Shown: in pieces, positions 4 through 49,545 of the stretch | How the letters are laid out: each line of letters begins with the position of its first letter | How positions within the stretch are numbered: the stretch's first letter is position 1 | Origin: an uncultured Alphaproteobacteria bacterium | Lineage (GTDB): Bacteria > Pseudomonadota > Alphaproteobacteria > RF32 > CAG-239 | NCBI GenBank assembly: GCA_944393175.1 | Contig: CALXZH010000024.1 | Coordinates: forward strand, 29,813 to 93,812 | Direction of reading: 5' to 3' | DNA length: 64,000 nucleotides | Notes under the pieces: model-generated | What the model was told of the DNA's origin: nothing | The model's input: only the letters and a program-made list of their open reading frames with translations | Databases searched by the model: none | Program-made: the position numbers and the translations under genes

Positions 4-1398
4 ATGGTTTTTAGTTCGTTAATTTTTTTGTGGATGTTCTTACCTATTGTTTTGGGTATGTATTTTCTGACAAAAGAAAGTTATCGAAACGTTTTGTTGC
101 TCGTAGCCAGTTTGTTCTTCTATGCTTGGGGTGAGCCGATTTATGTTTTGATTATGATTTTATCTATTCTCATTAACTGTGTTTGCGGTTTGAAAATCGG
201 TGTGGAAAATGAGAAAAAACGTAAAGTTGCGCTACTCTGGGGTGTGGTTATCAATTTGGCCTTGTTGGGCGTGTTTAAGTATTCCGGCTTCTTTATGGAC
301 AATTTTAATGCCTTGTTCGGTTTGAACGTTGAGGTTAAAAAACTGCCTCTGCCGATTGGTATTTCATTTTACACTTTTCAATCAATTTCTTATTTGGTGG
401 ATATTTATCGCAGAGTGTGTGAGCCGCAAAAAAGTTTGGTAAAAATGGGGCTGTTTATTTCTTTCTTCCCGCAATTGATTGCCGGACCGATTTTGAAATA
501 TTATGATATTGCCGCTCAGATTGATAACCGTAAAGTATCGTTCGTTTTATTTAATCAGGGAGCAGTGCGCTTTTTGCAAGGTTTGGCAAAAAAAGTTATT
601 ATTGCCAATATTATGGCAAAAACTGCCGATGAAATTTTTGGAATGGGCCTGAATGATGTTTCAACGCCGATGGCTTGGATTGGAATTGTGGCTTATACTT
701 TCCAGATTTATTTTGACTTTTCGGGCTATTCCGATATGGCTATCGGTTTGGGCAAAATGTTTGGATTCCACATTAATGAGAACTTTAATTATCCTTATAT
801 TTCAACCTCAATTAAAGACTTTTGGAGAAGATGGCACATTTCTCTTTCAACTTGGTTTAAGGAATATTTGTATATTCCCTTGGGCGGAAACCGAGAAGGT
901 AAGTTTAAGACTTATCGCAATTTGATGATTGTGTTCTTTACCACCGGTTTGTGGCACGGAGCCAGTTGGAATTTTGTAATTTGGGGCTTGTTCCATGGTT
1001 TCTTCTTGGTTATGGAACGTATTTTTCCGATTGATAAATTTTTGCGTTTTCGCATTATCCAAAATATATATGCCTTGCTTGTCGTTATGGTGGGGTGGGT
1101 GTTCTTCAGAGCAGAAACCTTAAGCTCGGCTTTGGGATATTTAAATAGAATGTTTGTGCCTTATAAGACAGATGTTTATTCGGCTTATCTCTCAAACGAG
1201 TTCTTGATGGTTTTGGTTTTGGCGGTCTTGAGCTGCGGTTTCTTGAAACTCGTATTTGATAAACTGCCAATTAAATTTGAATATAAATTCGGCTTAATGA
1301 GGTTATTAAATCCAGCTTGGTGTATGGTTATTGCTTATTTCAGCGTCTTACTTTTGGCCAGCAATACTTATAATCCGTTTATTTATTTCAGGTTCTGA
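4..1398 (+). CDS. MBOAT-family membrane-bound O-acyltransferase (AlgI/DltB/PatA-like polysaccharide O-acetyltransferase); may be N-terminally clipped by the window edge
   Basis: 464-aa polytopic membrane protein with MBOAT-type conserved His region (WRRWHISLSTWFKEYLYIPLGG); immediately followed by AlgJ/AlgX-like genes. Confidence 0.8.
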   Translation: MVFSSLIFLWMFLPIVLGMYFLTKESYRNVLLLVASLFFYAWGEPIYVLIMILSILINCVCGLKIGVENEKKRKVALLWGVVINLALLGVFKYSGFFMDNFNALFGLNVEVKKLPLPIGISFYTFQSISYLVDIYRRVCEPQKSLVKMGLFISFFPQLIAGPILKYYDIAAQIDNRKVSFVLFNQGAVRFLQGLAKKVIIANIMAKTADEIFGMGLNDVSTPMAWIGIVAYTFQIYFDFSGYSDMAIGLGKMFGFHINENFNYPYISTSIKDFWRRWHISLSTWFKEYLYIPLGGNREGKFKTYRNLMIVFFTTGLWHGASWNFVIWGLFHGFFLVMERIFPIDKFLRFRIIQNIYALLVVMVGWVFFRAETLSSALGYLNRMFVPYKTDVYSAYLSNEFLMVLVLAVLSCGFLKLVFDKLPIKFEYKFGLMRLLNPAWCMVIAYFSVLLLASNTYNPFIYFRF

Positions 1399-11508: not shown

Positions 11509-12171
11509 TTAAATTTCTAAGCGGACGACTACTCGGCGGTTTTTTTCTTGATTTTCGGGAATATATTCCCCATATGAGTTGGTGTTGGGATATTTGGGAA
11601 CAATGTGTCCCATGCCGATTGCCTTAAATCTTTCTTCTTTGAGACCGCGAGCAATGAGCGCATGGACTATTGCTCCGGCGCGGGCTGATGATAATTCCCA
11701 ATCCGACTGATAGCCGGAAGCTTTTGTTTCAATCGTATCAGTGTGGCCTTCAACGCTTATGCTAAAGCGACGATATTTTTCGCCTTTCAGCAGTTCTGCA
11801 ATTTGATTTAGGAGTTTATCGCTGCCTTTTTTGAGTTTGTCAGATCCTTTTTCAAATAATATGGAACTGGTAATATCTAATGTTGCACCGCATGAATCCG
11901 AGCCTATGCCGATGCCTTCTCCTAGATTAGCTTTGGCGGCATCATCTAAAAAATTTAGTATGGTTCCGTTCATTTGGTCAGCAGCCATTCCTCCAAATGC
12001 TGCAGCAAAGGCATATTGAATTTGGGCGGCTTTTTGTTTGTCCAGAGAAGAAGATGCAAAAAGAACAATAAACAAAGCCAAAAGCAGTGTTAATAAGTCG
12101 GAATAGGGAATCAGCCAAGTTTCGTCGGCATGTTCTTCATGGGGGGCTTCGGCAGGTTTCTTTTTGACCAT
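11509..12171 (-). CDS. motB: flagellar motor stator protein MotB-like (OmpA-like C-terminal domain)
   Basis: 220 aa; single N-terminal TM, C-terminal OmpA/MotB peptidoglycan-binding region (VEGHTD...SSARA...RRV); directly downstream of motA-like gene. Confidence 0.7.
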   Translation of the reverse strand: MVKKKPAEAPHEEHADETWLIPYSDLLTLLLALFIVLFASSSLDKQKAAQIQYAFAAAFGGMAADQMNGTILNFLDDAAKANLGEGIGIGSDSCGATLDITSSILFEKGSDKLKKGSDKLLNQIAELLKGEKYRRFSISVEGHTDTIETKASGYQSDWELSSARAGAIVHALIARGLKEERFKAIGMGHIVPKYPNTNSYGEYIPENQEKNRRVVVRLEI

Positions 12172-12180
12172 TTTTTACCT

Positions 12181-12951
12181 CTAGTCGTGCAAAGGTTTGC
12201 GTTCGGAAACAGGGATGAAAGATTGAAGTTTTGATTCCATCGCCATTGATGAGGCTCCGGATTGCAGAGCTAATGCTCCTTCTAGAATCATTTTTTTGAT
12301 TTCAACTTCGGCAGCCGATATTCTTTTGAGCTTATTGGCAAACGGGTGCCAACAAACATAACCGGTAAAAATACCCAGTAAGGTGGCAACAAATGCGGCT
12401 GCTATGGAGTGACCTAACTTATCTATATCAGATAAGTTTCCTAAGGCCGCAATTAATCCGATTACGGCACCAAGAACACCAAGGGTAGGGGCATACATTC
12501 CGCCTTGCGAAAAGATGGATGCATTGGCGCGGTGACGTTCTTCCATCTGTTTGATGTCATTATCGGCAACCTCATAAATAAAATCTGCACTGAAACCATC
12601 GGCTACCATAGAAAGCGTTGATTTGATAAAAGGGTCTTCAATTTCATTGGCGCGCTTTTCTATGGCCATAACACCTTCTTGTTTGGCTGATTTTGCCAGG
12701 CTCACAAATAATTCAAGTACTTCTTGTTTGCTGATTTGCGGTTTGCCGCAAAATATAATTTTACATAGTGTCGGAAAGCGTTTCAATTCCTCCATGGTAA
12801 AAGCATTGAAGAGTGCGGCGCCGGTTCCGGCAAAAATAATTAAATATGCGGCAGGGTTAATAAGTGCATGTGGGTCGGCTCCTTTTAAGTACATACCTAT
12901 ACCAATAGAGGCTATGCCGGCAGAAAGCCCAATAATCGTTGATTTTTCCAT
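12181..12951 (-). CDS. motA: flagellar motor stator protein MotA/PomA-like (MotA/TolQ/ExbB family)
   Basis: 256 aa, 4 TM, MotA-like topology and conserved C-terminal TM3-TM4 region (PTLGVLGAVIGLI...AAFVATLLG). Confidence 0.7.
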   Translation of the reverse strand: MEKSTIIGLSAGIASIGIGMYLKGADPHALINPAAYLIIFAGTGAALFNAFTMEELKRFPTLCKIIFCGKPQISKQEVLELFVSLAKSAKQEGVMAIEKRANEIEDPFIKSTLSMVADGFSADFIYEVADNDIKQMEERHRANASIFSQGGMYAPTLGVLGAVIGLIAALGNLSDIDKLGHSIAAAFVATLLGIFTGYVCWHPFANKLKRISAAEVEIKKMILEGALALQSGASSMAMESKLQSFIPVSERKPLHD

Positions 12952-13146
12952 AAGTTATACCTTTAATTGTTTTATTTTTGCATTATAGATATAACTCTTT
13001 AATATTATGTAAATATTTTCGTATCATTCCTTTTAGAATAAGGTGTTGTCGGAATAACATTTGAAAATAGTTTATGAATTGATTGCTTTTATTTGATATA
13101 AGGCTTATATTAATATTATATGACTTACAGAATATGGAGTTTTTTA

Positions 13147-14039
13147 TGCAAAAATTTAATACCTTTTTGGCTTTTGACATCGGTGGAACAAAAATTGCTT
13201 ATGCATTGGTTGACGCTAAGGGAAATTTATTGGCAGAACAGGTTAGAATTCCAACGCCGAAAGATAATCAGGTTTTATTTGATACCTTAAAAAATGTTGT
13301 TCAAAAATTTGAAAGCCAAATTGATGGTATTGCAATTGCAACCGCAGGCGAAGTTAATAAAGATAATACTCATATTATTGCTTCGGTCGGAAATATGCCC
13401 AAAGGCTATATGAATACTGATTTTACGGCCCTATCGGATAAGCCGGTTTATGTGGAAAATGATGCTAATGCCGCAATGTGGGGCGAATATCTTTTGGGCG
13501 CGGCTAAAGGAACGGAAAATGCCATGTTGGTGGCTATCGGAACCGGTGTCGGGTTAGCGTTTATTGTTAACGGAAAAATATTAAAGGGAAAATCCGGTGC
13601 CGGTGGTGAAGCTCATTTTTCGGTTAATCGTGAGAAAAAGCGTCATTGCAGTTGCGGTTTGTGGGATTGTTATGAAATTTATGCTTCCGGTACGGCTTTG
13701 GGATTGGATGCTCAAGAAGTTTACGGACGAGATGATGTTTCCAGCCACGACGTGATTAAAGGGCTGAAAGAAAAGAATCCTTTGGCTGAAAAAGCTTATC
13801 ACATTTGGGAAAGTGATGTGGTTAGAGGAATTGCCGGTTTGGCAAATATATTTGATCCTGAAATTGTGGTGCTGTTTGGGTCATTGACGGCATTCATGGA
13901 TTTTGATAAATTGCAGGATGAAGTTAATCAGCAGATTGTTACCATGCCCTTGAAATTAAAGCATGCGCAATTGGATAATAATGCCGCACTGGTCGGAACT
14001 ACTTTGGCTGCCGCAGAAAAATTTAATAAGGATGCTTAA
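13147..14039 (+). CDS. ROK-family sugar kinase (glucokinase/N-acetylhexosamine kinase-like)
   Basis: ATP-binding DIGGTKIAYALVD motif; ROK zinc motif CSCGLWDCYE; ATG at 13147 with GGAG RBS. Confidence 0.8.
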
Positions 14040-19048: not shown

Positions 19049-21238
19049 ATGAAATACGGATATTTTGGATTTTGCTGTGGTTTGTTATTGGGAACAACAT
19101 CTATTGCTTGGGCCGATATTCCGGCAGGAACAACGGAAAGCGGTGGAAGCGTGGCCAGAGGAACAGTGCAAAATGTGTATGGTACGGCGGTAGATTTTTC
19201 GGTAAACGGAACGCAAAATATTATGTCGGGAGGAAATAGTCAATACACGGCACTTTATTCTTCGGGACGGCAGGTCGTAAATTCCGGAGGTTATGCTTTG
19301 GCAACGCAGGTTAATAATAATGCCGTGCAAACCGTATTAGGAAAAGCCGAACAGACTTTGATTAATTACGGACAACAAGTTGTTGCTGATGGCGGAACGG
19401 CTCTTAATTCAACCGTAAAATACGGCACCATAACCGTTCAAACCGGTGGAACGGCTCAAGGAACAAATGTGTCGTATCGCGGAGTGGAAAATGTGTCCGG
19501 ACTGGATATTGGTTCCACCATAAATTCTCGTGGTACGCAAAATGTTATGTCGGGAGGACAAGCCCAAAACACCACCATTAACAGCGGCGGAAATCAATAT
19601 GTGTATGCCGGAGGGGTGAGCTCGGGTACAATTATCAACGGCGGCTATCAGTTGGTTGAAGGTGAAGCTCAAAATACCGTGATGTATGACGGTTCGCAAG
19701 TGGTGGATGGTGGAACACTGGACGGAGCTGTGGTTAATGGCTATGGAGGTTTGAGTTTTTCTTCAGGCGGCAAGGGAAATAATCTGAGCTTAAATGATGA
19801 AGGCAGTATTATGGCCTTTAGCGGTACAAAAATTTCAGATGTTACTGTCAATAGCGGGTATTTGTTGGTTGAGGGACAAGCCGAAATGAATAATCTTACG
19901 CAGTTTGGCGGTTCAACTTTGTTAGAAAACGGTGCCGTGGTTTCCGGTGTGACTAAACTTTCGGGCGGGGAATTTAAAGTGCAAGGTGCAAATACTATTC
20001 CTGTTTTGGAAATGAACAATGCTACGGTTGATATGATTAATGATAATCAATATGCCAAATTGACAATCGAAAATATTTCGGGGCAGGGCAAATTTTATCT
20101 CAATAGTCAGGCGGCAGCGTCACAAAGTGATGAATTAGTCATTAATGGTGGCAGCGGAAATTTTGGTATAGCCATGGTGGATAGCAGTTATGAAGAAATT
20201 TTTCCGCAAAATATTCCCATTGTGGATGTAGCAGGGGGTAATGCCCAGTTCTATTTGTTGGGCGGCGCGGTTGATGTCGGGGCTTATAAGTATGATTTGC
20301 ACCATATCGGAGATGAGTGGATTTTGGAAAAGACGTCTCAACTTACGGATACGGCAATCTTAACCAAGAATACTTATTCGGCAATCAATTCGGTTTTTTT
20401 GGCACAAATGGAAACGATGAATAATCGTTTTGATGATTTACATTTGTATAAAGACAGTGGCTTTTGGATTAAAACCGGATGGCGTAACTTAAAACTCAAT
20501 TTTAAAGACAGTACGGAAAGCGATGCGGATGTTACCACCATACAAGCCGGTTATGATATGAAAATTAAACAAGATTTGGTAGATGTGATGATGGTAGGTT
20601 TTTCGGCTGGATTTAGTGATTCCTTAATTGAATTTGACCGTAGCGGAAAGGCAAAAGGAGATACACTCAATGTTGGTCTGTATTCTTCTTTAATGACTCA
20701 AGATAAATATTTTTTGGATTTGATGGCCCATTATTCTTGGCATAGCCAAAAACTCAAAAGTTTCTTGCCGCATGGCGATGATGTCGACGGCAAATATGAT
20801 GTGAACGGTTGGAGCGTCGGTGCCGAAATAGGGAAAAAACTCGACTTGGCAAATGGGTGGTTTGCCGAACCTCATTTGAAGTTGAAATATATTGATCTTG
20901 GTTCGATGGAGTATCGCACAACTCTTAATACCAGAATTAAAGGAAGAGGAGCGACCTCTTTGGAAGGGCGTGTGGGCGCGTCTGCCGGTTATACCTGGGA
21001 TGATAAAGAAGTGTATGCCGAATTTAACTTGGTGGAAGAGTTTGACGGCAAAAGTAAAATTGATGTTGCCGGAGAAACGCTGCATGAAGATATTTCGGAT
21101 ACAATGTATGAGCTTGGCGCAGGTTTTAAGTTTCAACCAAGAGAAGATTTATATTCTTATGTGAGTGTTTCAACTCAATTGGGGGACAAAATAGAGGTGC
21201 CGATAGATGTGAATTTTGGTTTGAGGTATGAATTTTAG
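19049..21238 (+). CDS. autotransporter (type Va) with repetitive passenger and C-terminal beta-barrel translocator
   Basis: 729 aa; N-terminal signal peptide; passenger rich in degenerate SGG/NSGG ~20-aa repeats; C-terminal ~270 aa autotransporter barrel-like ending in aromatic residue (RYEF). Confidence 0.75.
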   Translation: MKYGYFGFCCGLLLGTTSIAWADIPAGTTESGGSVARGTVQNVYGTAVDFSVNGTQNIMSGGNSQYTALYSSGRQVVNSGGYALATQVNNNAVQTVLGKAEQTLINYGQQVVADGGTALNSTVKYGTITVQTGGTAQGTNVSYRGVENVSGLDIGSTINSRGTQNVMSGGQAQNTTINSGGNQYVYAGGVSSGTIINGGYQLVEGEAQNTVMYDGSQVVDGGTLDGAVVNGYGGLSFSSGGKGNNLSLNDEGSIMAFSGTKISDVTVNSGYLLVEGQAEMNNLTQFGGSTLLENGAVVSGVTKLSGGEFKVQGANTIPVLEMNNATVDMINDNQYAKLTIENISGQGKFYLNSQAAASQSDELVINGGSGNFGIAMVDSSYEEIFPQNIPIVDVAGGNAQFYLLGGAVDVGAYKYDLHHIGDEWILEKTSQLTDTAILTKNTYSAINSVFLAQMETMNNRFDDLHLYKDSGFWIKTGWRNLKLNFKDSTESDADVTTIQAGYDMKIKQDLVDVMMVGFSAGFSDSLIEFDRSGKAKGDTLNVGLYSSLMTQDKYFLDLMAHYSWHSQKLKSFLPHGDDVDGKYDVNGWSVGAEIGKKLDLANGWFAEPHLKLKYIDLGSMEYRTTLNTRIKGRGATSLEGRVGASAGYTWDDKEVYAEFNLVEEFDGKSKIDVAGETLHEDISDTMYELGAGFKFQPREDLYSYVSVSTQLGDKIEVPIDVNFGLRYEF

Positions 21239-39770: not shown

Positions 39771-39846
<76 letters not shown>

Positions 39847-39974
39847 TCTAAAAGCCTTGGTTTTCCAAGGCTTTTTTTGTATTCAGTTCATGGCGTTTTT
39901 CTTGATGCATTCAACCAGTAAGCAAATAGTAAGCACTTCTATAGTAAATTCTTATAAGTTTGTGTAAGATTTGT

Positions 39975-41507: not shown

Positions 41508-41524
41508 TTTTGGAGAGGTATTTC

Positions 41525-42277
41525 ATGAATTCTTTGGTTCAGCTAGTGAAACATTCATTGAATGATGTTAATTCTACAAAAAATATTGATGTAATAAATG
41601 TAACAACTCGTTCAACACTATTACACGCAAAACATGTAAATAAATTTGAAAATCAATCAGATCAAACAAGTGAAATACAACAAATAGATAGCAATGTAGA
41701 GCATCCAATGCAATATCACATATCGCAAGGTACTATGATTTTGTATTTGCTATTTTTGGGTATAATAGGTGCTATTATATTTTATTTTATATTTCGAAAA
41801 GATAAGCATGATATGAAAGAAGTTAAAATGTTGAAAAATAAAAAATTTTCTATTTACAATCCTGCATTTGGCAATTTATTATTTTGTTCTGGTAGAATAA
41901 ATCGTTTACATTATTTTATCTATACACTTATTTTATCTGTGTTTTTTATGTTTCTGGTTTGGGGAATGATTTCCCTCAAAATAGATCCTGAATCCATTTT
42001 ATACACCGTAATTATTTTACGGTGGGTGGTTGGTCTCCCTCTTGTGTCCAAAAGATGCCATGATATTAATGTCAGTGTAAGTTATTATATTATGTATTCT
42101 ATATTTTGCTGCTTACTCTCTTTGTTTTCAGCAGATGAGTTTAGTCAGATTGTAACGTTTTTAATTAGAGGAGTTGATACTATAATTGCATTAATATTGT
42201 TGTTTAAGAAAGGAACTAATGGCAATAATAGATTTGGTATTTCCCCTTTGAAGACTAAGGAGAAAAAAAATGACTAG
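41525..42277 (+). CDS. DUF805-family inner-membrane protein with ~70-aa N-terminal cytoplasmic extension
   Basis: C-terminal 3-TM region with DUF805 hallmarks (GRINRLHY, KRCHDINVS, NRFG near C-terminus); ATG 41525 preceded by GGAGAGG; stop overlaps next gene start (ATGA). Confidence 0.65.
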   Translation: MNSLVQLVKHSLNDVNSTKNIDVINVTTRSTLLHAKHVNKFENQSDQTSEIQQIDSNVEHPMQYHISQGTMILYLLFLGIIGAIIFYFIFRKDKHDMKEVKMLKNKKFSIYNPAFGNLLFCSGRINRLHYFIYTLILSVFFMFLVWGMISLKIDPESILYTVIILRWVVGLPLVSKRCHDINVSVSYYIMYSIFCCLLSLFSADEFSQIVTFLIRGVDTIIALILLFKKGTNGNNRFGISPLKTKEKKND

Positions 42278-43829
42278 AAAATTTAAATATAGCCTTTGTG
42301 GCTTTGTTATATTTATAATTCTTGCCGTTTCTGCTTGTATATGCACGAATAATCAAGATGAGCTTATTCAGGATGATAAAGTTGCTTTTTCTCCTTCTAA
42401 AGAGTGTGAAAATACAATTATTAGCCTTATAAAACATTCTGAGAAAATTGATATAGTCGTGTTTGATATTAATAATGATAATATTGTTGAGGCTTTGCAG
42501 AAAGCTGAAAAACAAGGTAAAAAAATCAGAATACTTACGGATAAAAGACAAGCAGCGACTAAAGCCTCTAAAGTTATAGATTTGTATAAAGCTGGGATTA
42601 ATATTCGTGTAAATTCAAAGAACAAAATTGAACATAACAAATTTGCGGTATTTGATAATAAGTATGTGATTACAGGTTCTTATAATTGGACTAATCCGGC
42701 AAGTGAGAGAAATAGTGAAAATTGCCTTCTTTCTGTGGAAAATGAAGATATTATAGAAGATTATAATAATCGTTTTGAGTATTTGTGGCAGATAAATACA
42801 AAGAAAAAATCTGAGGCGTGGTTCCACAAAAAATTAAATCAAAAACAATATAATAATCGTAAATATATTACCAAACAGCAGCAAAAAAAGATAGAAAAGG
42901 TCTTAGATGATAGTATTCAGACCTTTTCGGCTAAGGGTGGCGCGGTTATTGTTTTAGATGCAGATAGTTCTCAAGTGCTATCGATGACTTCTATCCATAA
43001 AGGGGAGGGTGTTGTTGATTATATTGCGGATTATACATACCAACTTGGTTCGATTTATATGCCGTTTACAGTTGCTTTGGGTATAAAACAAAATGTTGTT
43101 TCAAATACGACGGAATTTGATGTTTCTAAGCCTTTGAATGTTCAAGGGTATAACATTTCAGACGTTAATCCTCTAAAAGTTGATAAAATTACTCTGCAAG
43201 ATGTGTTGTCTAAAAGTTCTAACATTGCGACTGCACAAATTGCTACGGATATAACGCCTAAACAACATAATAAATTTTTAAAATCTTTAGGTTTGGGAGA
43301 ACCGATTGTTTTAGAAAATTTGCATACAGCTAAGCCGATTTTACCGGATTTAGATGATGAAATTACTATAGCCAATTTGGGATATGGTTTTGGTATTTAT
43401 GCAACGCCATTACATGTGGCAGCAGCTTATGCAGCTTTGGTCAATGGCGGTCAATATCATGCCCTATATCTCAAAAAATCTGAAAAAACGGATGGTAAAC
43501 AAGTTATTCCTTCCCAAATATCGAAAGAAATGCGTGAATATTTACGTCAAGTCGTTACAAATGGTTCGGCAAGAAAAGCTAATCTTTCGTATGTAGATGT
43601 TATGGCAAAGACAGGAACTGTGTCTAAAATGATTGATGGAAAGTATCATGACAATATTGTTATAACTCATGTTGTGGGAAATTTTGAATATAATGGTATG
43701 CACTATGTTGTATATGTTTTACTTGATGAACCGCAACCGACAAAACAAACTTATGGGTTTGTAACGTCAGGTTGGAATGCGGTTCCGACGATGGCTCAAA
43801 TTATTAATATCATAGCAAAAAAATCTTAA
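42270..43829 (+). CDS. lipoprotein fusing an N-terminal single-HKD phospholipase-D/Nuc-like nuclease domain to a C-terminal class-B PBP transpeptidase-like domain with degenerate SxxK (SIYM)
   Basis: Lipobox AVSAC; HKD motif H122-x-K-x4-D129 followed by GSYNWT (Nuc/PLD family); C-terminal domain shows PBP motifs SSN (316-318) and KTG (447-449) at canonical spacing, but the SxxK position reads S261-I-Y-M264. Confidence 0.65.
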   Translation: MTRKFKYSLCGFVIFIILAVSACICTNNQDELIQDDKVAFSPSKECENTIISLIKHSEKIDIVVFDINNDNIVEALQKAEKQGKKIRILTDKRQAATKASKVIDLYKAGINIRVNSKNKIEHNKFAVFDNKYVITGSYNWTNPASERNSENCLLSVENEDIIEDYNNRFEYLWQINTKKKSEAWFHKKLNQKQYNNRKYITKQQQKKIEKVLDDSIQTFSAKGGAVIVLDADSSQVLSMTSIHKGEGVVDYIADYTYQLGSIYMPFTVALGIKQNVVSNTTEFDVSKPLNVQGYNISDVNPLKVDKITLQDVLSKSSNIATAQIATDITPKQHNKFLKSLGLGEPIVLENLHTAKPILPDLDDEITIANLGYGFGIYATPLHVAAAYAALVNGGQYHALYLKKSEKTDGKQVIPSQISKEMREYLRQVVTNGSARKANLSYVDVMAKTGTVSKMIDGKYHDNIVITHVVGNFEYNGMHYVVYVLLDEPQPTKQTYGFVTSGWNAVPTMAQIINIIAKKS

Positions 43830-43911: not shown

Positions 43912-44970
43912 TTATTTTTCAGCTTTCAGAATGTTGCCGATAGTTGATTTGGAAATTCCTGTTGTATTAGCAATTTCTCTATAGCTTGCACCTTGTTCAT
44001 GCAATGTTTTTACGATAGAATAAGTATCAACCCAAGCAATACCTCCGTCCGTAGTATCTACTAAATCAATATTAAAATTTGAAATGTCTTTGCTCGAAAG
44101 GTTACGGTTCTTTTCAAATTTTAAACGACATCTACCGCCGTAAATCGCATATTCGTCTGATATATCTGAATAGTTTTCTTCAGCTTCTTCTGTTTTGGTG
44201 AGCTTTTTCTTGTTTGGTGTCGTGACTTCAAGATTAATCACTGTATCTAGTATATCTTCTCTTTTAGATATTCCTCTTTGGCCACCTCTCTTTCCAGAAT
44301 GATGAACTAATAATACAGCAATTCCTTGTTTCCTTAGCTCCATTAGCCACTCTTGAATTATAAGCCAAGCATTCCCGTCTAATTCATCTATCTTAGTTAA
44401 AGATGATATATTATCTAAGATAACAAATTTTATATTTTCGTTGAAAATAATATCATTAATATTTTTTTGCATTAAACCATACGCAATATCAATTGAGGTA
44501 AATGGTTGTAAATCCGCTGAAAAAATATGCAAGTTGTCCATTGCATTCACTTCTGTATCAAAATTTTTAGCTATTTTTGAAAAGCGTTCTTGAAGTAAGT
44601 TTGCTTGCATTTCCCCATCAATATATAACACATTTGAAGGTTTATAGGCTTTCCAACGTAAGAATTTACTTCCAGTTGCAATTGCGTAAGCTAAAGACAT
44701 AGCAAAAAAGCTTTTTCCTACTCCTCTATAAGCATGTAACATTGTTAGACTTTTAGCGTGAATAATCGGATCAAGTAGCATTTCTGGCTTAGGCAAATTC
44801 AATTGCATAAAATTCTTTAAGTTAAATATTTTACAAGGATTTTTATTCTCTTGATTATTTGTAATATTTATATTATTGTCGTTTGCAGGATTGGTTGATA
44901 AATCAATCGTTTGTTCTACTCCGTCTTGTTCCAGCAAGGCGGAATTTTTTATATCCATATTATCTTCCAT
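43912..44970 (-). CDS. RepA/DnaB-like RecA-fold ATPase (AAA_25-like) with C-terminal HTH; island replication/mobilisation protein
   Basis: Walker A AYRGVGKS, Walker B FVILDN, HHSGK motif; C-terminal HTH (SYREIANTTGISKSTIGNIL). Confidence 0.65.
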   Translation of the reverse strand: MEDNMDIKNSALLEQDGVEQTIDLSTNPANDNNINITNNQENKNPCKIFNLKNFMQLNLPKPEMLLDPIIHAKSLTMLHAYRGVGKSFFAMSLAYAIATGSKFLRWKAYKPSNVLYIDGEMQANLLQERFSKIAKNFDTEVNAMDNLHIFSADLQPFTSIDIAYGLMQKNINDIIFNENIKFVILDNISSLTKIDELDGNAWLIIQEWLMELRKQGIAVLLVHHSGKRGGQRGISKREDILDTVINLEVTTPNKKKLTKTEEAEENYSDISDEYAIYGGRCRLKFEKNRNLSSKDISNFNIDLVDTTDGGIAWVDTYSIVKTLHEQGASYREIANTTGISKSTIGNILKAEK

Positions 44971-45217
44971 AGTTTATCTCCTTTTTTGAATATTCAGAAG
45001 TTGATGTTACTTTAGAGGTTTGCGAATCTAACCAATCTAAAACGTCTTGCTTTTTGTATAGTCGCTTGTTTCCCAATTTTATATAAGGGATACCACCGCC
45101 TGATACAGCTTTGCAGTTAAACCATGAGATTGATTTGTTGAGATATGCAGCAACAATTTTTGTTGGCAACAATGCATCTGCCGGAGCAGATAGAAAATTA
45201 TTTAAATTATTATTCAA
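44960..45217 (-). CDS. AlpA-family phage/island regulatory protein (excisionase-like HTH)
   Basis: 85 aa; AlpA-like pattern (PTKIVAAYLNKSISWFNC...GIPYIKLGNKRLYKKQDVLDWL); overlaps repA-like start by 11 nt. Confidence 0.65.
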   Translation of the reverse strand: MNNNLNNFLSAPADALLPTKIVAAYLNKSISWFNCKAVSGGGIPYIKLGNKRLYKKQDVLDWLDSQTSKVTSTSEYSKKEINYGR

Positions 45218-45345: not shown

Positions 45346-46029
45346 TTATTGAATATTCTTTTTCTTCTTGGGATATAACATTCTTCGAATCGATAAAGAA
45401 TAGTCTGAATTGCACCAATTATATGCTATTTCTTTTGCATATTCCTGAAGTTTTTTTATATTTTCTTCTTTATTGGCAAAATGATTTATGGTTAATTTTT
45501 TATTCAAGTTTTTTTGCTGTTCAAATAAATCCTTGGTATATTTCTTTAGTCTCTCATGCTTGTCGTTTTTGGCTTTTACTCCTGCGTTGCTTATTTCGAG
45601 CTGTCTTTCTTGTAATATTTGTTTAGCCAGTTCTGCATCGGTATATTTGAGATGTTTGATACAAATATCAAATCCATTAGAAAATACTAAGAAGGCAAGG
45701 TATAATCCGTCTTTGTTATTTTGAAGTCCTGTATATATATTGTGTAGCTTTTGTTGTAGAACTGTCAGTTCTTTATTGGGATAAACTTTATTACCTTTCC
45801 AAAAATCAACTACTGTCTTTATGGTTAAATTTTTTTCTTCTTTTTCTAGCAAAAATACAGAAATATTGATTAAATTTATGAATAATGAGCTTGTTGCATA
45901 ATTATCAGCCCCAAACCCCGTTAAATTATAAAAATATTCGCTGGGATCTAATATAAAATAATCCTGATTAAGATTATAAGCATCGGTTATCAATAATTCA
46001 TAAATTTCTCTGATTTCTTGTCTTTTCAT
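45346..46029 (-). CDS. hypothetical protein (island, between int and alpA)
   Basis: 227-aa ORF, no recognisable motif; sits where satellite regulators are often found. Confidence 0.4.
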   Translation of the reverse strand: MKRQEIREIYELLITDAYNLNQDYFILDPSEYFYNLTGFGADNYATSSLFINLINISVFLLEKEEKNLTIKTVVDFWKGNKVYPNKELTVLQQKLHNIYTGLQNNKDGLYLAFLVFSNGFDICIKHLKYTDAELAKQILQERQLEISNAGVKAKNDKHERLKKYTKDLFEQQKNLNKKLTINHFANKEENIKKLQEYAKEIAYNWCNSDYSLSIRRMLYPKKKKNIQ

Positions 46030-46047: not shown

Positions 46048-47274
46048 TTATACTATTTTATTAAATATGTTTACCACATTATTGGTTTCATTTTCTTTAA
46101 CTCCGGCTTGTTTTAGTATGTAATCTTCTATAAGTTGCATTGGCTTACGCAAGGTTTCAGTTTCAAATTGGATATATCCTGCGGTAACATCATCTTCGGA
46201 ATGGTTTAAGAGCTTTTTTAGTGTAAAATTTGTTATTCCGGCAATATGATTATTGGCAATACTGGCAAAAGTTCGGCGAATATCATGTAAAGAGAATTTA
46301 ATACCGCTGTTTTCTGCAATGTGTTGTACAGTTTTTCTTTGATTTTCAACATGCCCACTTTTATTTTGAGCTGGAAAAACGTATATCGAATCGTTATTTT
46401 CTTTTAATTTTAACAAAAACTCTCTTAAATATTCTCCCATCGGTAGAATGTGTTCTTTGTGGTTTTTGGTATGTTCAAAGGTAATGGTGTTTAATTTGAA
46501 GTCAATATTGCACCATTTTAGAGTTCCGGCTTCTTGGTCTCGACATCCAGTAAATAGAATGAATAAACATTGATTTTTAACTGTTTTTACGTTTTCAGTG
46601 TCTTGTTCATGGTGTTGAAGTCCAAAAAAGAAGGTTTTAATTTGAGATGGGTGAATGTAACTTTGTCTTCTGGGTACTTTATTCCATAATTTGAAGGCTT
46701 TTAATCGATTGCAAGGATTGGAAGGAATGATTGGTTCTCCATTTACTATATATTTTTCCATTGCAAAATTAAATACGGCTCTTAAAAATCTAAAATCAGA
46801 GTTAGCAATAGATTTTGATGATTTAGATGTATCCAGAAATCTATTTTCTATCATTTCACGAGAGATATTCGTTAGAGCTTTATTTGCCCAATCTTTAAAA
46901 CAAAGGCGCATACTCCGTTCATATTTTATTTTTGTGCTTTCAGTAATGGTTTTAATCTTAATGTATTCTTCATAGGCTTGTTGTAGGGTAATACTTTTTG
47001 TCTTTTCTTCCTTTTCTCTGGTTGTAATGTCTATGCCTTGAGCTAGATCACCTAGATATTTTTTTGCTATTCTACGAGCTTCTTCGGGAGTAAAAACATT
47101 AATCTGACCTATTTTTTTACGAATTGTTTTTCCTCTATCGTTTCTCGCTTGTATAATATAGCTGATTTTTTTCTTGGTTACTTTTATGCCGAATCCTTTT
47201 AGGTCATCATCCCAGTAAAATTCTTCTTTGTCTGTGAATTTTAACTTATCAATATTTGATTTATTAATTTTCAT
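46048..47274 (-). CDS. int: tyrosine site-specific integrase, P4-type (N-terminal DUF4102-like arm-binding domain)
   Basis: 408 aa; catalytic R (GCRDQEAGTLKW), HDIRRT, and C-terminal VTAGYI Tyr; N-terminal MKINKSNIDKLKFTDKEEFYWDD...GFGIKV typical of P4-family integrases that target tRNA genes. Confidence 0.9.
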   Translation of the reverse strand: MKINKSNIDKLKFTDKEEFYWDDDLKGFGIKVTKKKISYIIQARNDRGKTIRKKIGQINVFTPEEARRIAKKYLGDLAQGIDITTREKEEKTKSITLQQAYEEYIKIKTITESTKIKYERSMRLCFKDWANKALTNISREMIENRFLDTSKSSKSIANSDFRFLRAVFNFAMEKYIVNGEPIIPSNPCNRLKAFKLWNKVPRRQSYIHPSQIKTFFFGLQHHEQDTENVKTVKNQCLFILFTGCRDQEAGTLKWCNIDFKLNTITFEHTKNHKEHILPMGEYLREFLLKLKENNDSIYVFPAQNKSGHVENQRKTVQHIAENSGIKFSLHDIRRTFASIANNHIAGITNFTLKKLLNHSEDDVTAGYIQFETETLRKPMQLIEDYILKQAGVKENETNNVVNIFNKIV

Positions 47275-47446: not shown

Positions 47447-47526
47447 ACTGAAAATCCTCGTGTCGGCGGTTCAATCCCGTCCCCGAGCACCATCTAAAAG
47501 CCTTGGTTTTCCAAGGCTTTTGTTGT
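47447..47526 (+). repeat. attR-like direct repeat: copy of tRNA-Phe nt 31-76 plus downstream terminator
   Basis: ACTGAAAATCCTCGTGTCGGCGGTTCAATCCCGTCCCCGAGCACCATCTAAAAGCCTTGGTTTTCCAAGGCTTTT identical to 39801-39875. Confidence 0.9.
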
Positions 47527-47930
47527 ATGGTGCTCTCGCCAATCGAGCGGCGCAGGGCTTGCTCTCTTGGGGACGGGCCTCGCTTTGAAACTTAATTTCA
47601 CTTCCGAAACTGTTCGTTTCGTCGTTCAATAAATTTTCAAAGATGTTGCATACAAAAACAATCAATCGTGATTGTTTTTGCTTAGCCATCCCAACTCGCA
47701 CCATCTAAAAGCCTTGGTTTTCCAAGGCTTTTGTTGTATGGTGCTCTCGCCAATCGAGCGGCGCAGGGCTTGCTCTCTTGGGGACGGGCCTCGCTTTGAA
47801 ACTTAATTTCACTTCCGAAATTGTTCGTTTCGTCGTTCAATAAATTTTCAAAGATGTTGCAGACAAAAACAATCAATCGTGATTGTTTTTGCTTAGCCAT
47901 CCCAACTCGCACCATCTAAAAGCCTCCGAT
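47493..47930 (+). repeat. 211-bp tandem repeat, 2 complete copies + 16-bp start of a third; each unit ends in a tRNA-3'-end mimic (CCCAACTCGCACCA)
   Basis: Units 47493-47703 and 47704-47914 near-identical (period 211); third begins TCTAAAAGCCT then diverges. Confidence 0.9.
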
Positions 47931-48063
47931 TAAGAAAGTTTTGTGTGGCTAAAAGAATTTATTATCTTGTGTCTTACGCCTTATCCTTATATTGTATGAG
48001 TCTAAATTGAAAAAACACTTAGTTTTTTTTTGTCTTTCAGTGATTGATATTATGGATAGGTAG

Positions 48064-48914: not shown

Positions 48915-49196
48915 ATGAAAAACTTTAACTCTACTTCTAATTCTTCTTTAAACTTAAGTGAAAGCGCTATTCGTGAAGCTGCTTACTATATTTGGAAAAA
49001 TAACGGTTGCCCGGCTAACACCAGCTTGAGCGACTGGAATGCTGCTATTAACCAACTTTCTTCTATGGCTGCTTTGAACTCTGCTGCTAAGAAAATTTCT
49101 ACAAAGACTTCTTCTTGCAAAGCTTCTACCTTGGTTAAGAAAACTCCGGTTAAAAAAGCTGCTAAAACTACTGCCAAAAAGAAATCTTCTAAATAG
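48915..49196 (+). CDS. DUF2934-family small protein
   Basis: IREAAYYIWKNNGCPANTSLSDWNAA matches DUF2934 signature; Ala/Lys-rich tail. Confidence 0.5.
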   Translation: MKNFNSTSNSSLNLSESAIREAAYYIWKNNGCPANTSLSDWNAAINQLSSMAALNSAAKKISTKTSSCKASTLVKKTPVKKAAKTTAKKKSSK

Positions 49197-49302: not shown

Positions 49303-49545
49303 ATGTTTGATGAAAAAACTATTCGTGAGACGGCTTATTATATTTGGAAAAATAACGGTTGTCCGGCTAATACTTCTACTCAGGATTGGAATGCCGCAAT
49401 TGAGCAATTAGAGCAGAAAGATGCTTTGGCTACCGCTAAACAAATATCTTCTTTGTATCAAGCGGCTTTCTTGAATTCTTTGACCAAAAGCAAAAGCCGT
49501 AAAAAAGATAGCTTACAGTTAATGCGCCAAATCATTTTGAAATAA
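49303..49545 (+). CDS. DUF2934-family small protein (paralog)
   Basis: IRETAYYIWKNNGCPANTSTQDWNAA; ATG 49303 preceded by GGGAGA RBS. Confidence 0.5.
   Translation: MFDEKTIRETAYYIWKNNGCPANTSTQDWNAAIEQLEQKDALATAKQISSLYQAAFLNSLTKSKSRKKDSLQLMRQIILK

Follow-up and report, generated by a model that had tools for sequence, protein, structure and literature searches.

A pedestal-less, degenerate FtsI-type transpeptidase domain fused to an HKD enzyme on a small integrative island of an uncultured alphaproteobacterium

A 64,000-nucleotide (nt) stretch of contig CALXZH010000024.1 from an uncultured alphaproteobacterium (assembly GCA_944393175.1, positions 29,813 to 93,812 of the forward strand), referred to here as the window, encodes a 519-residue protein in which an exported PLD domain with one HKD motif is joined to a transpeptidase domain of the FtsI type. 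In this second domain, which has the fold of class-B penicillin-binding proteins (PBPs), the general-base lysine of the SxxK motif is replaced by methionine, and catalytic lesions of varying kinds are present in every aligned relative, making it very probable that the domain is a pseudoenzyme. The favoured interpretation of the whole protein is that of an envelope-anchored HKD nuclease carrying a non-catalytic, probably peptidoglycan-binding targeting module, with a possible role as a DNA barrier, a composite reading with a probability of about 0.45. An earlier inspection of the same DNA by eye (the sequence-only reading) had recognised the lesion and the fusion, while the placement of the gene on a mobile island and the membrane protein encoded immediately upstream had escaped it.

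The fusion open reading frame (ORF) spans 42270-43829 on the plus strand as a single uninterrupted frame, with AAGGAG located 8 nt 5' of its ATG. Residues 1-25 (42270-42344, +) form an export signal or membrane anchor ending in the lipobox V-S-A-C23. They are followed by a Nuc/Zucchini-type PLD domain (residues 38-178; 42381-42803, +), a linker, and the pedestal-less transpeptidase-fold domain (residues 223-519; 42936-43826, +), so that the range 42852-43829, on which the earlier reading had focused, corresponds to residues 195-519. Pfam assigns PLDc_2 to residues 50-173 (E 2.9e-25) and Transpeptidase (PF00905) to residues 224-493 (E 2.1e-39). The pedestal domain of class-B PBPs (PBP_dimer, PF03717) was not found in the fusion by the Pfam scan, residues 38-178 being occupied by the PLD domain.

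The assignment of the C-terminal part to the class-B (FtsI-type) transpeptidase fold with a replaced general base, as proposed from the sequence, is supported by PF00905, by phmmer and by structural comparison. Motif 1, S261-I-Y-M264 (43050-43061, +), occupies the SxxK position, and motif 2 (SxN), S316-S-N318 (43215-43223, +), and motif 3 (KTG), K447-T-G449 (43608-43616, +), are retained, with spacings of 55 and 131 residues that a script reproduced as originally stated. When the PDB was searched with phmmer, the string GSIYMPFTVA paired with GSAMKPFTIA of Neisseria gonorrhoeae PBP2 (PenA; S310/K313, E 6e-25), placing Met264, whose codon is ATG at 43059-43061, opposite K313, with SSN opposite SSN and KTG opposite KTG. 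An AlphaFold2 (AF2) model of the fusion, built on a 68-sequence alignment, has a mean pLDDT (per-residue confidence) of 84.8, most ten-residue blocks of the transpeptidase domain exceeding 90 with dips to 73-89, and in it S261 lies at the N-terminal end of helix 260-273, as expected for an SxxK helix. The top Foldseek match is the transpeptidase domain of Escherichia coli PBP3 (6i1i), with a TM-score of 0.87 normalised to the target.

Two further strings of SxxK form were considered as the true motif and rejected: S241-IH-K244 belongs to a strand (235-243), S433-AR-K436 to the loop that follows helix 415-431, and in both cases the lysine is unconserved in the family. A sequencing error at Met264 was also rejected, since the residue recurs across many independent assemblies, being present in every member read of the window's 90%-identity cluster and in P0001-P0009. 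Measured against the features that define class-B PBPs, the protein possesses the penicilloyl-serine transferase (PF00905) fold, according to Pfam and to the AF2 model with Foldseek, and the window copy also has its SxN and KTG motifs at the canonical distances. It lacks an SxxK combining nucleophilic serine and general-base lysine, and it lacks the N-terminal transmembrane segment and pedestal, PF03717 being present in all canonical relatives. Because the SxxK lysine and the pedestal are both lost, the fusion does not belong to the class-B PBPs. In NCBIfam, matches to PenA/PBP2, SpoVD, FtsI and NucT all fell far below the curated cut-offs (50 bits against a cut-off of 211 for the NucT models), which means that the fusion cannot be classed as an equivalog of NucT or of a named PBP.

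A homologue search covering 5.8 billion proteins recovered 16 full-length homologue clusters (clustered at 90% identity) at 51-91% identity, all combining PLDc_2 and Transpeptidase; the matches that followed were alphaproteobacterial FtsI proteins at about 35% identity, aligned over the transpeptidase part only. The family, carried by uncultured alphaproteobacteria, is narrow, as it collapses into a single cluster of a 50%-identity library. The host lineage is heavily sampled, TopA having hundreds of relatives at 86-97% identity, all labelled 'Alphaproteobacteria bacterium'. Searches of plasmid, phage and IMG/VR collections yielded FtsI/PBP2 or PLD-only genes and no full-length fusion, and a scan of GTDB genomes with the family alignment (transpeptidase patterns) returned only canonical Sphingomonadales FtsI loci at up to 36% identity and no fusion locus. 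A Foldseek comparison of the fusion with viral structures found nothing relevant. One protein of 219 residues, P0303, carries the fusion signal and half of the PLD domain in its first 113 residues and then unrelated sequence, and is probably a rearranged or chimeric copy.

All 39 aligned fusion sequences carry at least one catalytic lesion, and the kinds of lesion vary. In subclade A, which includes the window copy, motif 1 reads SIYM/SVYM, AAYM, ATYM, ATYT or PVYQ, so that its lysine is always replaced (by Met, Thr or Gln) and the nucleophilic serine often (by Ala or Pro), with KTG retained. Subclade B (P0011 and P0013-P0016) retains S-x-I-K and SSN, and its KTG has become ITG, while P0012 has DSN in place of SSN on top of its other lesion. 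The earlier statement that SxN and KTG are kept therefore holds for the window copy and fails for the family. For comparison, 152 pedestal-bearing relatives were taken from the same searches as a canonical set; the motif-1 lysine is 100% conserved among them because they were picked for three intact motifs, and about four further pedestal-bearing relatives outside this set have degenerate motifs. In a neighbour-joining tree the fusion family is monophyletic, with subclades A and B as sister groups. By parsimony, the different lesions of the two sister subclades point to independent inactivation after the fusion, and a function shared by the family therefore cannot depend on acyl-enzyme chemistry. 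The proposal that the domain is non-catalytic, first made from the single methionine, has become much more likely in view of the differing lesions of the sister clades, the serine losses and a ratio of nonsynonymous to synonymous substitution rates (dN/dS) of about 0.2.

This ratio was estimated by the Nei-Gojobori method for gene pairs with unsaturated dS (0.17-0.63), which gave 0.18-0.23 for the transpeptidase part and 0.05-0.11 for the PLD part. Such purifying selection indicates that the pseudo-transpeptidase is not a relic. Homologue lengths are confined to 506-521 residues, without frameshifts, stops or truncations down to 51% identity, and about 60 columns of the family alignment are invariant, mostly in the transpeptidase half. 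S317, N318, T448 and G449 are invariant in the fusion family and T450 is at least 90% conserved; moreover, canonical FtsI has 48 columns with a conservation of 85% or more, and the family keeps 24 of these. In functional PBPs, the Asn of SxN and the Thr-Gly of KTG contact the substrate amide and terminal carboxylate. Retention of these contact residues alongside a freely varying base and nucleophile fits a binding module, a pattern that is compatible with such a role and no proof of it.

The nearest relatives of the fused transpeptidase domain in the neighbour-joining tree are exported transpeptidases that likewise lack a pedestal. In a profile search over 1.84 billion representatives, proteins consisting of a signal or lipobox and a transpeptidase domain outscored canonical FtsI (P0172, P0173, P0175, P0176, P0179, P0181, P0215, P0255 and others), and two proteins (P0174 and P0320) combined MORN_2 repeats with the transpeptidase domain. 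Among about 12 clear pedestal-less forms with a signal, 7-8 have broken motifs (states include AIMN, TVLQ, SVWD, GQAAK, STS, VTT, LTG and MTS), against about 4 of about 156 pedestal-bearing relatives. The pedestal and transmembrane region couple class-B PBPs to their SEDS partner. Since broken motifs are concentrated in the pedestal-less forms, catalytic residues tend to be lost where the SEDS-coupling pedestal has been lost, and several pedestal-less transpeptidases retain all three motifs and may be active. A further profile search with the pedestal-less domains, which was dominated by canonical FtsI, yielded no new enzyme fusions and added only transpeptidase-only proteins of about 400-420 residues and one MORN_2-transpeptidase protein. 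The exported pedestal-less FtsI-like clade comprises P0172-P0181, P0209, P0215, P0255, P0264, P0287, P0305 and P0320; the gene of one member with dead motifs, P0172 (L095, 8001-9089), lies in a mobile region rich in ankyrin repeats, among genes for Mu F, a resolvase and SocA.

The N-terminal half retains a full set of catalytic residues. Its best PDB matches are mouse MitoPLD/Zucchini (1.8e-17), Nuc of plasmid pKM101 (1byr, 1.2e-12) and NucT (1.2e-5), and H122, K124, D129, S137, N139 and E150 are in register with the Nuc motif HDKVIIVD...GSFNFT...NSEN. The motif H122-x-K124-x4-D129-x6-G136-S137-x-N139 is encoded at 42633-42686 (+) and followed by N148-S-E150-N. These residues are at least 90% conserved among the 16 full-length homologues, a PLD-less fragment (P0017) being gapped there. 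The domain thus combines the PLD fold, the single HxK(x)4D(x)6GSxN motif and the NSEN glutamate of Nuc, NucT and Zucchini with an export signal, seen as a hydrophobic helix at residues 4-25 in the sequence and the AF2 model together with the lipobox VSAC. These three proteins are nucleases that form dimers, and two of them, Nuc and NucT, undergo export (PMC5714352). Similarity to this subfamily makes a nuclease the likely identity of the HKD domain, as first suggested, with a phospholipid substrate still possible. The designation as a lipoprotein applies to the window copy; the lipobox cysteine is missing in subclade B and some other homologues, so that export or membrane anchoring is conserved and lipidation is not. 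Stand-alone secreted PLD proteins of about 185 residues (P0194, P0217 and an ORF of L099) have the same C-terminal tail, W..NT.(K/E)KS..WF, and form PHROG 12711, which has no assigned function. Secreted Nuc-like PLDs of 185 residues, 46-48% identical to the N-terminal half of the fusion, occur on predicted viral or mobile contigs (L099 10010-10567, L098 2261-2812 and INPHARED MT837206.1), where stand-alone PLD genes adjoin genes for a large serine recombinase, a ParB-like protein and a Fic protein, the serine recombinase being the neighbour in L099.

The fusion gene is the signature cargo of an element of about 7 kb that integrates at a tRNA gene. In the window, the island spans about 7.65 kb between two 82-nt direct repeats that are 99% identical, the left one (39801-39882) made up of the 3' part of a tRNA-Phe gene and a terminator-like hairpin (39850-39875) and the right one lying at 47447-47528. 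The integration target is the tRNA-Phe (GAA) gene at 39771-39846 (+), identified by ARAGORN, the 3' half of which falls inside the repeat. The GC content is 0.30-0.33 within the island against about 0.40 across most of the window. Downstream of the fusion, the minus strand encodes an AAA_25 (RecA/helicase-like) protein with a C-terminal helix-turn-helix (43912-44970; Pfam E 3e-29, with PHROG matches to the C-terminal regions of primases/helicases), an HTH_17 (AlpA/excisionase-like) protein in conserved synteny (44960-45217), a 227-residue protein with no Pfam, PHROG or PADLOC match (45346-46029), whose position is held by an ORF of 182-233 residues in related islands, and a tyrosine integrase with Arm-DNA-bind_3 and Phage_integrase domains (46048-47274; phrog_1 integrase, E 7e-53). 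The island also contains two small ORFs and the DUF805 gene that lies upstream of the fusion. With periplasmic DNases of mobile genetic elements (MGEs) the protein shares residence on an integrative element (attachment (att) repeats and integrase) and an export signal.

The block of fusion, AAA_25, HTH_17, uncharacterised and integrase genes recurs for P0011, P0012, P0006 and P0016, the AAA_25 gene adjoining the fusion in L081-L086 and L089-L092, and some related islands carry Type I restriction-modification (R-M) genes with TIR, PIN or Fic cargo beyond the block. The P0012 element measures 6,856 bp (L085, 7953-14839), is flanked by the 31-nt repeat TTGCTCGGGGCAACATCGGGGCAACATTTTT and adjoins a tRNA-Met gene. 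An entire contig from an independent sample (L086) is an exact circular permutation of this 6,856-bp element, which indicates an excised circle or a tandem form. The gene for P0003 and P0004 lies with a small upstream ORF between a nitroreductase gene and glmS, without an integrase (L087 and L094); because these copies stand without the island core, the fusion gene outlives the element there. A metagenome scan with the island AAA_25 protein returned four short loci (37-39% identity), none with a fusion alongside and too few for an estimate of frequency, and a promoter scan of this AT-rich island DNA was uninformative (42 sites against 41 expected). Several minor features of these loci were recorded. 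A 211-nt tandem duplication lies just outside the right att repeat (47487-47908), and a 39-nt att/terminator core occurs four times, starting at 39841, 47487, 47698 and 47909 (copies include 39841-39879 and 47909-47947); the four cores may be scars of repeated integration or the result of slipped duplication. Between the island and topA, a 63-nt direct repeat is present at 48959-49021 and 49311-49373 (86% identity, 352 nt apart). In L087, glmS is split into ORFs of 448 and 114 residues, the gene in L094 being intact at 613 residues (both 11595-13436), and the AAA_25 gene is split into 211 and 160 residues in L089-L091 (L089, 11632-12691); both splits are frameshifts, arising from decay or assembly error.

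Directly upstream of the fusion, the plus strand encodes a 255-residue multi-pass inner-membrane protein of the DUF805 family (41510-42277; Pfam E 8e-11), the end of its reading frame overlapping the beginning of the fusion by 8 nt, an arrangement repeated in L081-L084. In every locus, the fusion gene is preceded by one for a small multi-pass membrane protein, with an overlap or a distance of only a few bases between the two (L081 9247-9996, L085 9543-10016, L092 189-644, L094 9544-9999, L089 9655-10008 and L087 9796-10008), and these proteins represent four or more types without mutual relationship (DUF805 of about 250 residues, 151-157 residues, 92/117 residues and 70 residues). The signal region of the fusion co-varies with the type of partner. 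Between the window copy and P0011, the proportion of synonymous differences (pS) is 0.22 over the first 37 codons, the remainder of the genes being saturated (pS about 0.63-0.65). Since the signal region tracks the partner type and the rest is saturated, a recombination breakpoint lies inside the 5' end of the fusion gene. The membrane protein may be a functional partner or may simply mark the edge of a cargo hotspot. The small size, diversity, multiple transmembrane segments and charged C-termini of the upstream proteins also raised the idea of a holin paired with a downstream endolysin, which was rejected as a lead, the putative lysin being dead and no other phage genes being present.

Under the favoured interpretation, the fusion would have been built from two parts that exist separately, a secreted PLD protein of about 185 residues and an FtsI-derived transpeptidase domain of about 330 residues. 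The HKD domain, with its full catalytic set, would be the enzyme, presumably acting as a homodimer like all single-HKD proteins. The transpeptidase domain would have no normal acyl-enzyme chemistry, because Lys has become Met in the window copy, Ser has become Ala or Pro in relatives and the Lys of KTG has become Ile in the sister clade. That a dead domain is under selection, with the Asn of SxN and the Thr-Gly of KTG invariant, argues for a non-catalytic binding module, and the pseudo-transpeptidase has most likely been kept as a cell-wall-binding handle. Judging from the retained contact residues, it would bind peptidoglycan stem peptides non-covalently and thereby hold the nuclease in the wall or periplasm, and the fusion gene would be translationally coupled to that of the small membrane protein. 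Periplasmic DNases encoded by MGEs block transformation, and integrative elements have been argued to gain by this (PMC12378983). By analogy with IdeA/SxnA and Dns, the fusion may serve to degrade DNA that reaches the periplasm through transformation or from rival elements, and so to protect its own element; this DNA-barrier role is put forward tentatively.

Several observations weigh against this interpretation. Peptidoglycan binding is deduced from retained contact residues, and 24 of the 48 FtsI-conserved columns are altered in the family, including the KTG neighbours G446A and A451V; because residues adjacent to KTG have changed, the ligand site may be remodelled. Weak acylation might persist in subclade B, where both the serine and the lysine of motif 1 are kept. 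The top PDB match of the PLD domain, MitoPLD/Zucchini, was named 'cardiolipin hydrolase' by its depositors, which makes a lipid substrate possible. No system-level match in PADLOC-DB v2 was obtained for the fusion and its neighbours, and the favoured model leaves the upstream membrane partner unexplained. In the same database, the PLD part matched DrmC, DpdK and Mko proteins weakly and at the domain level only, and neither the DUF805 partner nor the ORFs of 227, 129 and 105 residues had a match.

A broader proposal, which we regard as rather unlikely, is that the fusion and its coupled membrane protein constitute an unrecognised MGE-borne envelope barrier and that pedestal-less FtsI domains form a recruited family of peptidoglycan-binding pseudoenzymes. 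The dead FtsI domain would then read the state of the wall from pentapeptide stems left uncross-linked where the wall is being made or has been damaged. It would keep the phosphodiesterase in the peptidoglycan layer, so that nucleic acid or membrane lipid would be attacked at the very place of passage of foreign DNA through the envelope. Mobile elements and symbiont-like genomes would have recruited pedestal-less domains several times over, in PLD-fused, MORN-fused and stand-alone forms.

The 'cardiolipin hydrolase' matches also lend some support to a damage-triggered phospholipase, in which the HKD domain would cut cardiolipin or phosphatidylethanolamine, an activity also proposed for MitoPLD and further proteins of the PLD family, the dead PBP would sense muropeptides or uncross-linked stems after a breach of the wall by phage or lysin, and the upstream membrane protein would serve as regulator or immunity factor of an abortive-infection-type cargo. 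Such a role would suit a membrane-anchored protein with a small membrane protein coupled upstream in all loci and, in L081 and L089, with a gene that neighbours defence cargo (a Type I R-M system into which TIR, PIN and Fic genes are inserted). PLD domains also occur in DISARM (DrmC), Dpd and Mokosh; the PADLOC domain matches are weak, however, with none at the system level. The characterised bacterial relatives of the subfamily (Nuc and NucT) are nucleases, mutual non-homology of the upstream proteins would be odd for a dedicated regulator, and nothing supports the sensing step, leaving this possibility improbable.

We consider it equally doubtful that the FtsI-like domain is a protein-protein decoy that binds a partner of FtsI-type transpeptidases, such as a divisome regulator, a phage or MGE inhibitor or a lysis factor, so that the enzyme would be localised to the divisome or the partner titrated. 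Selection does maintain the fold even as many positions around the active site that are conserved in FtsI have changed, the closest canonical relatives are alphaproteobacterial FtsI proteins, and a related pedestal-less domain occurs together with MORN_2 repeats, a module for interaction with proteins or lipids. The pedestal and transmembrane region, which hold the known contact sites of FtsI with FtsW and FtsQLB, are nevertheless absent, no partner has been identified, and the invariant Asn318, Thr448 and Gly449 are more easily explained by binding of a small ligand.

It is highly unlikely that the transpeptidase-like part is a decaying, functionless remnant of an accidental fusion in which only the nuclease matters: every member has lost catalytic residues in differing ways, dN/dS is 2-4 times that of the PLD part and stand-alone secreted PLD proteins work without such an extension, but values of 0.18-0.23 are far below neutrality, reading frames and lengths are intact, the AF2 model has a well-packed domain with most blocks above 90, and the majority of the invariant columns lie in this half. 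The chance that the domain is a still-active DD-peptidase (transpeptidase, carboxypeptidase or endopeptidase) using another general base is just as slight, for although the window copy retains Ser261, SSN and KTG and subclade B has the motif-1 Ser and Lys, the lysine is invariant in the canonical set (selected for intact motifs), the nucleophile is absent from proteins closely related to the window copy (AAYM, ATYT and PVYQ), no conserved compensating lysine is nearby (K315 and K244 are unconserved), and the pedestal for substrate hand-over from a SEDS polymerase is absent.

Compared with known systems, the fusion protein is closest in its C-terminal half to FtsI/PBP3 and gonococcal PBP2 (PenA), with which it shares the fold and the canonical SxN/KTG spacing, alphaproteobacterial FtsI being nearest at about 35% identity. 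In contrast to these proteins, it lacks the cytoplasmic tail, transmembrane segment and pedestal, has Met for the motif-1 Lys and has changed half of the FtsI-conserved columns; unlike FtsI/PBP3, it is fused to an HKD domain and encoded on a mobile island outside the dcw cluster. With Nuc (pKM101), NucT and Zucchini/MitoPLD it has in common one HKD motif per chain and aligned catalytic residues, with Nuc and NucT the N-terminal export signal, and with Nuc carriage by a mobile element, whereas the pseudo-PBP extension of about 340 residues at the C-terminus and the lipobox (window copy) are additions of the fusion. We regard the protein as an enzyme of a known nuclease type that has very probably taken up a pseudoenzyme domain as an additional module. 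Pedestal-less FtsI-like exported transpeptidases share the truncated architecture, the N-terminal signal or lipobox and the recurrent loss of motifs, but have no PLD domain and in some cases have MORN_2 instead. BlaR1 and MecR1 contain class-D-like sensor domains that signal through covalent acylation of the serine of an intact SxxK and are fused to a transmembrane zinc protease. They offer a parallel in that a penicillin-binding fold serves something other than cross-linking, whereas the fusion no longer has an intact acylation machinery and pairs the fold with an HKD enzyme. The comparison with IdeA (ICE VchInd5), SxnA (SXT) and Dns (CJIE1) is one of functional analogy only, each being an exported nuclease-type enzyme on an integrative element (PMC12378983); these proteins lack a PBP-like module, and the barrier role is their functional class, being assigned to the fusion by analogy.

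The earlier suggestion that a PLD-PBP fusion is undescribed agrees with the literature searched, in which, with incomplete coverage and hence as absence of evidence, no description of such a fusion or of pedestal-less degenerate class-B PBPs was found. PBP transpeptidase domains are nearly always viewed as enzymes and drug targets, and a fold kept by selection after differing catalytic losses would represent a clear case of a PBP pseudoenzyme and a candidate new peptidoglycan-recognition module, within the scope of a narrow family (16 clusters at 90% identity, one at 50%). The joint loss of pedestal and catalytic residues provides a testable evolutionary rule for class-B PBPs. A minimal integrative element of 7 kb with a fusion of Nuc type points to an envelope function that favours mobile DNA, through exclusion or defence, and the two-gene unit of membrane protein and fusion is simple enough for heterologous study.

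Apart from the fusion, the window contains two host envelope genes, one for an autotransporter with a C-terminal beta-barrel and adhesin-type repeats (19049-21238), the presence of which indicates a diderm host, and one for a DltB-like MBOAT protein at the start of the window (4-1398).

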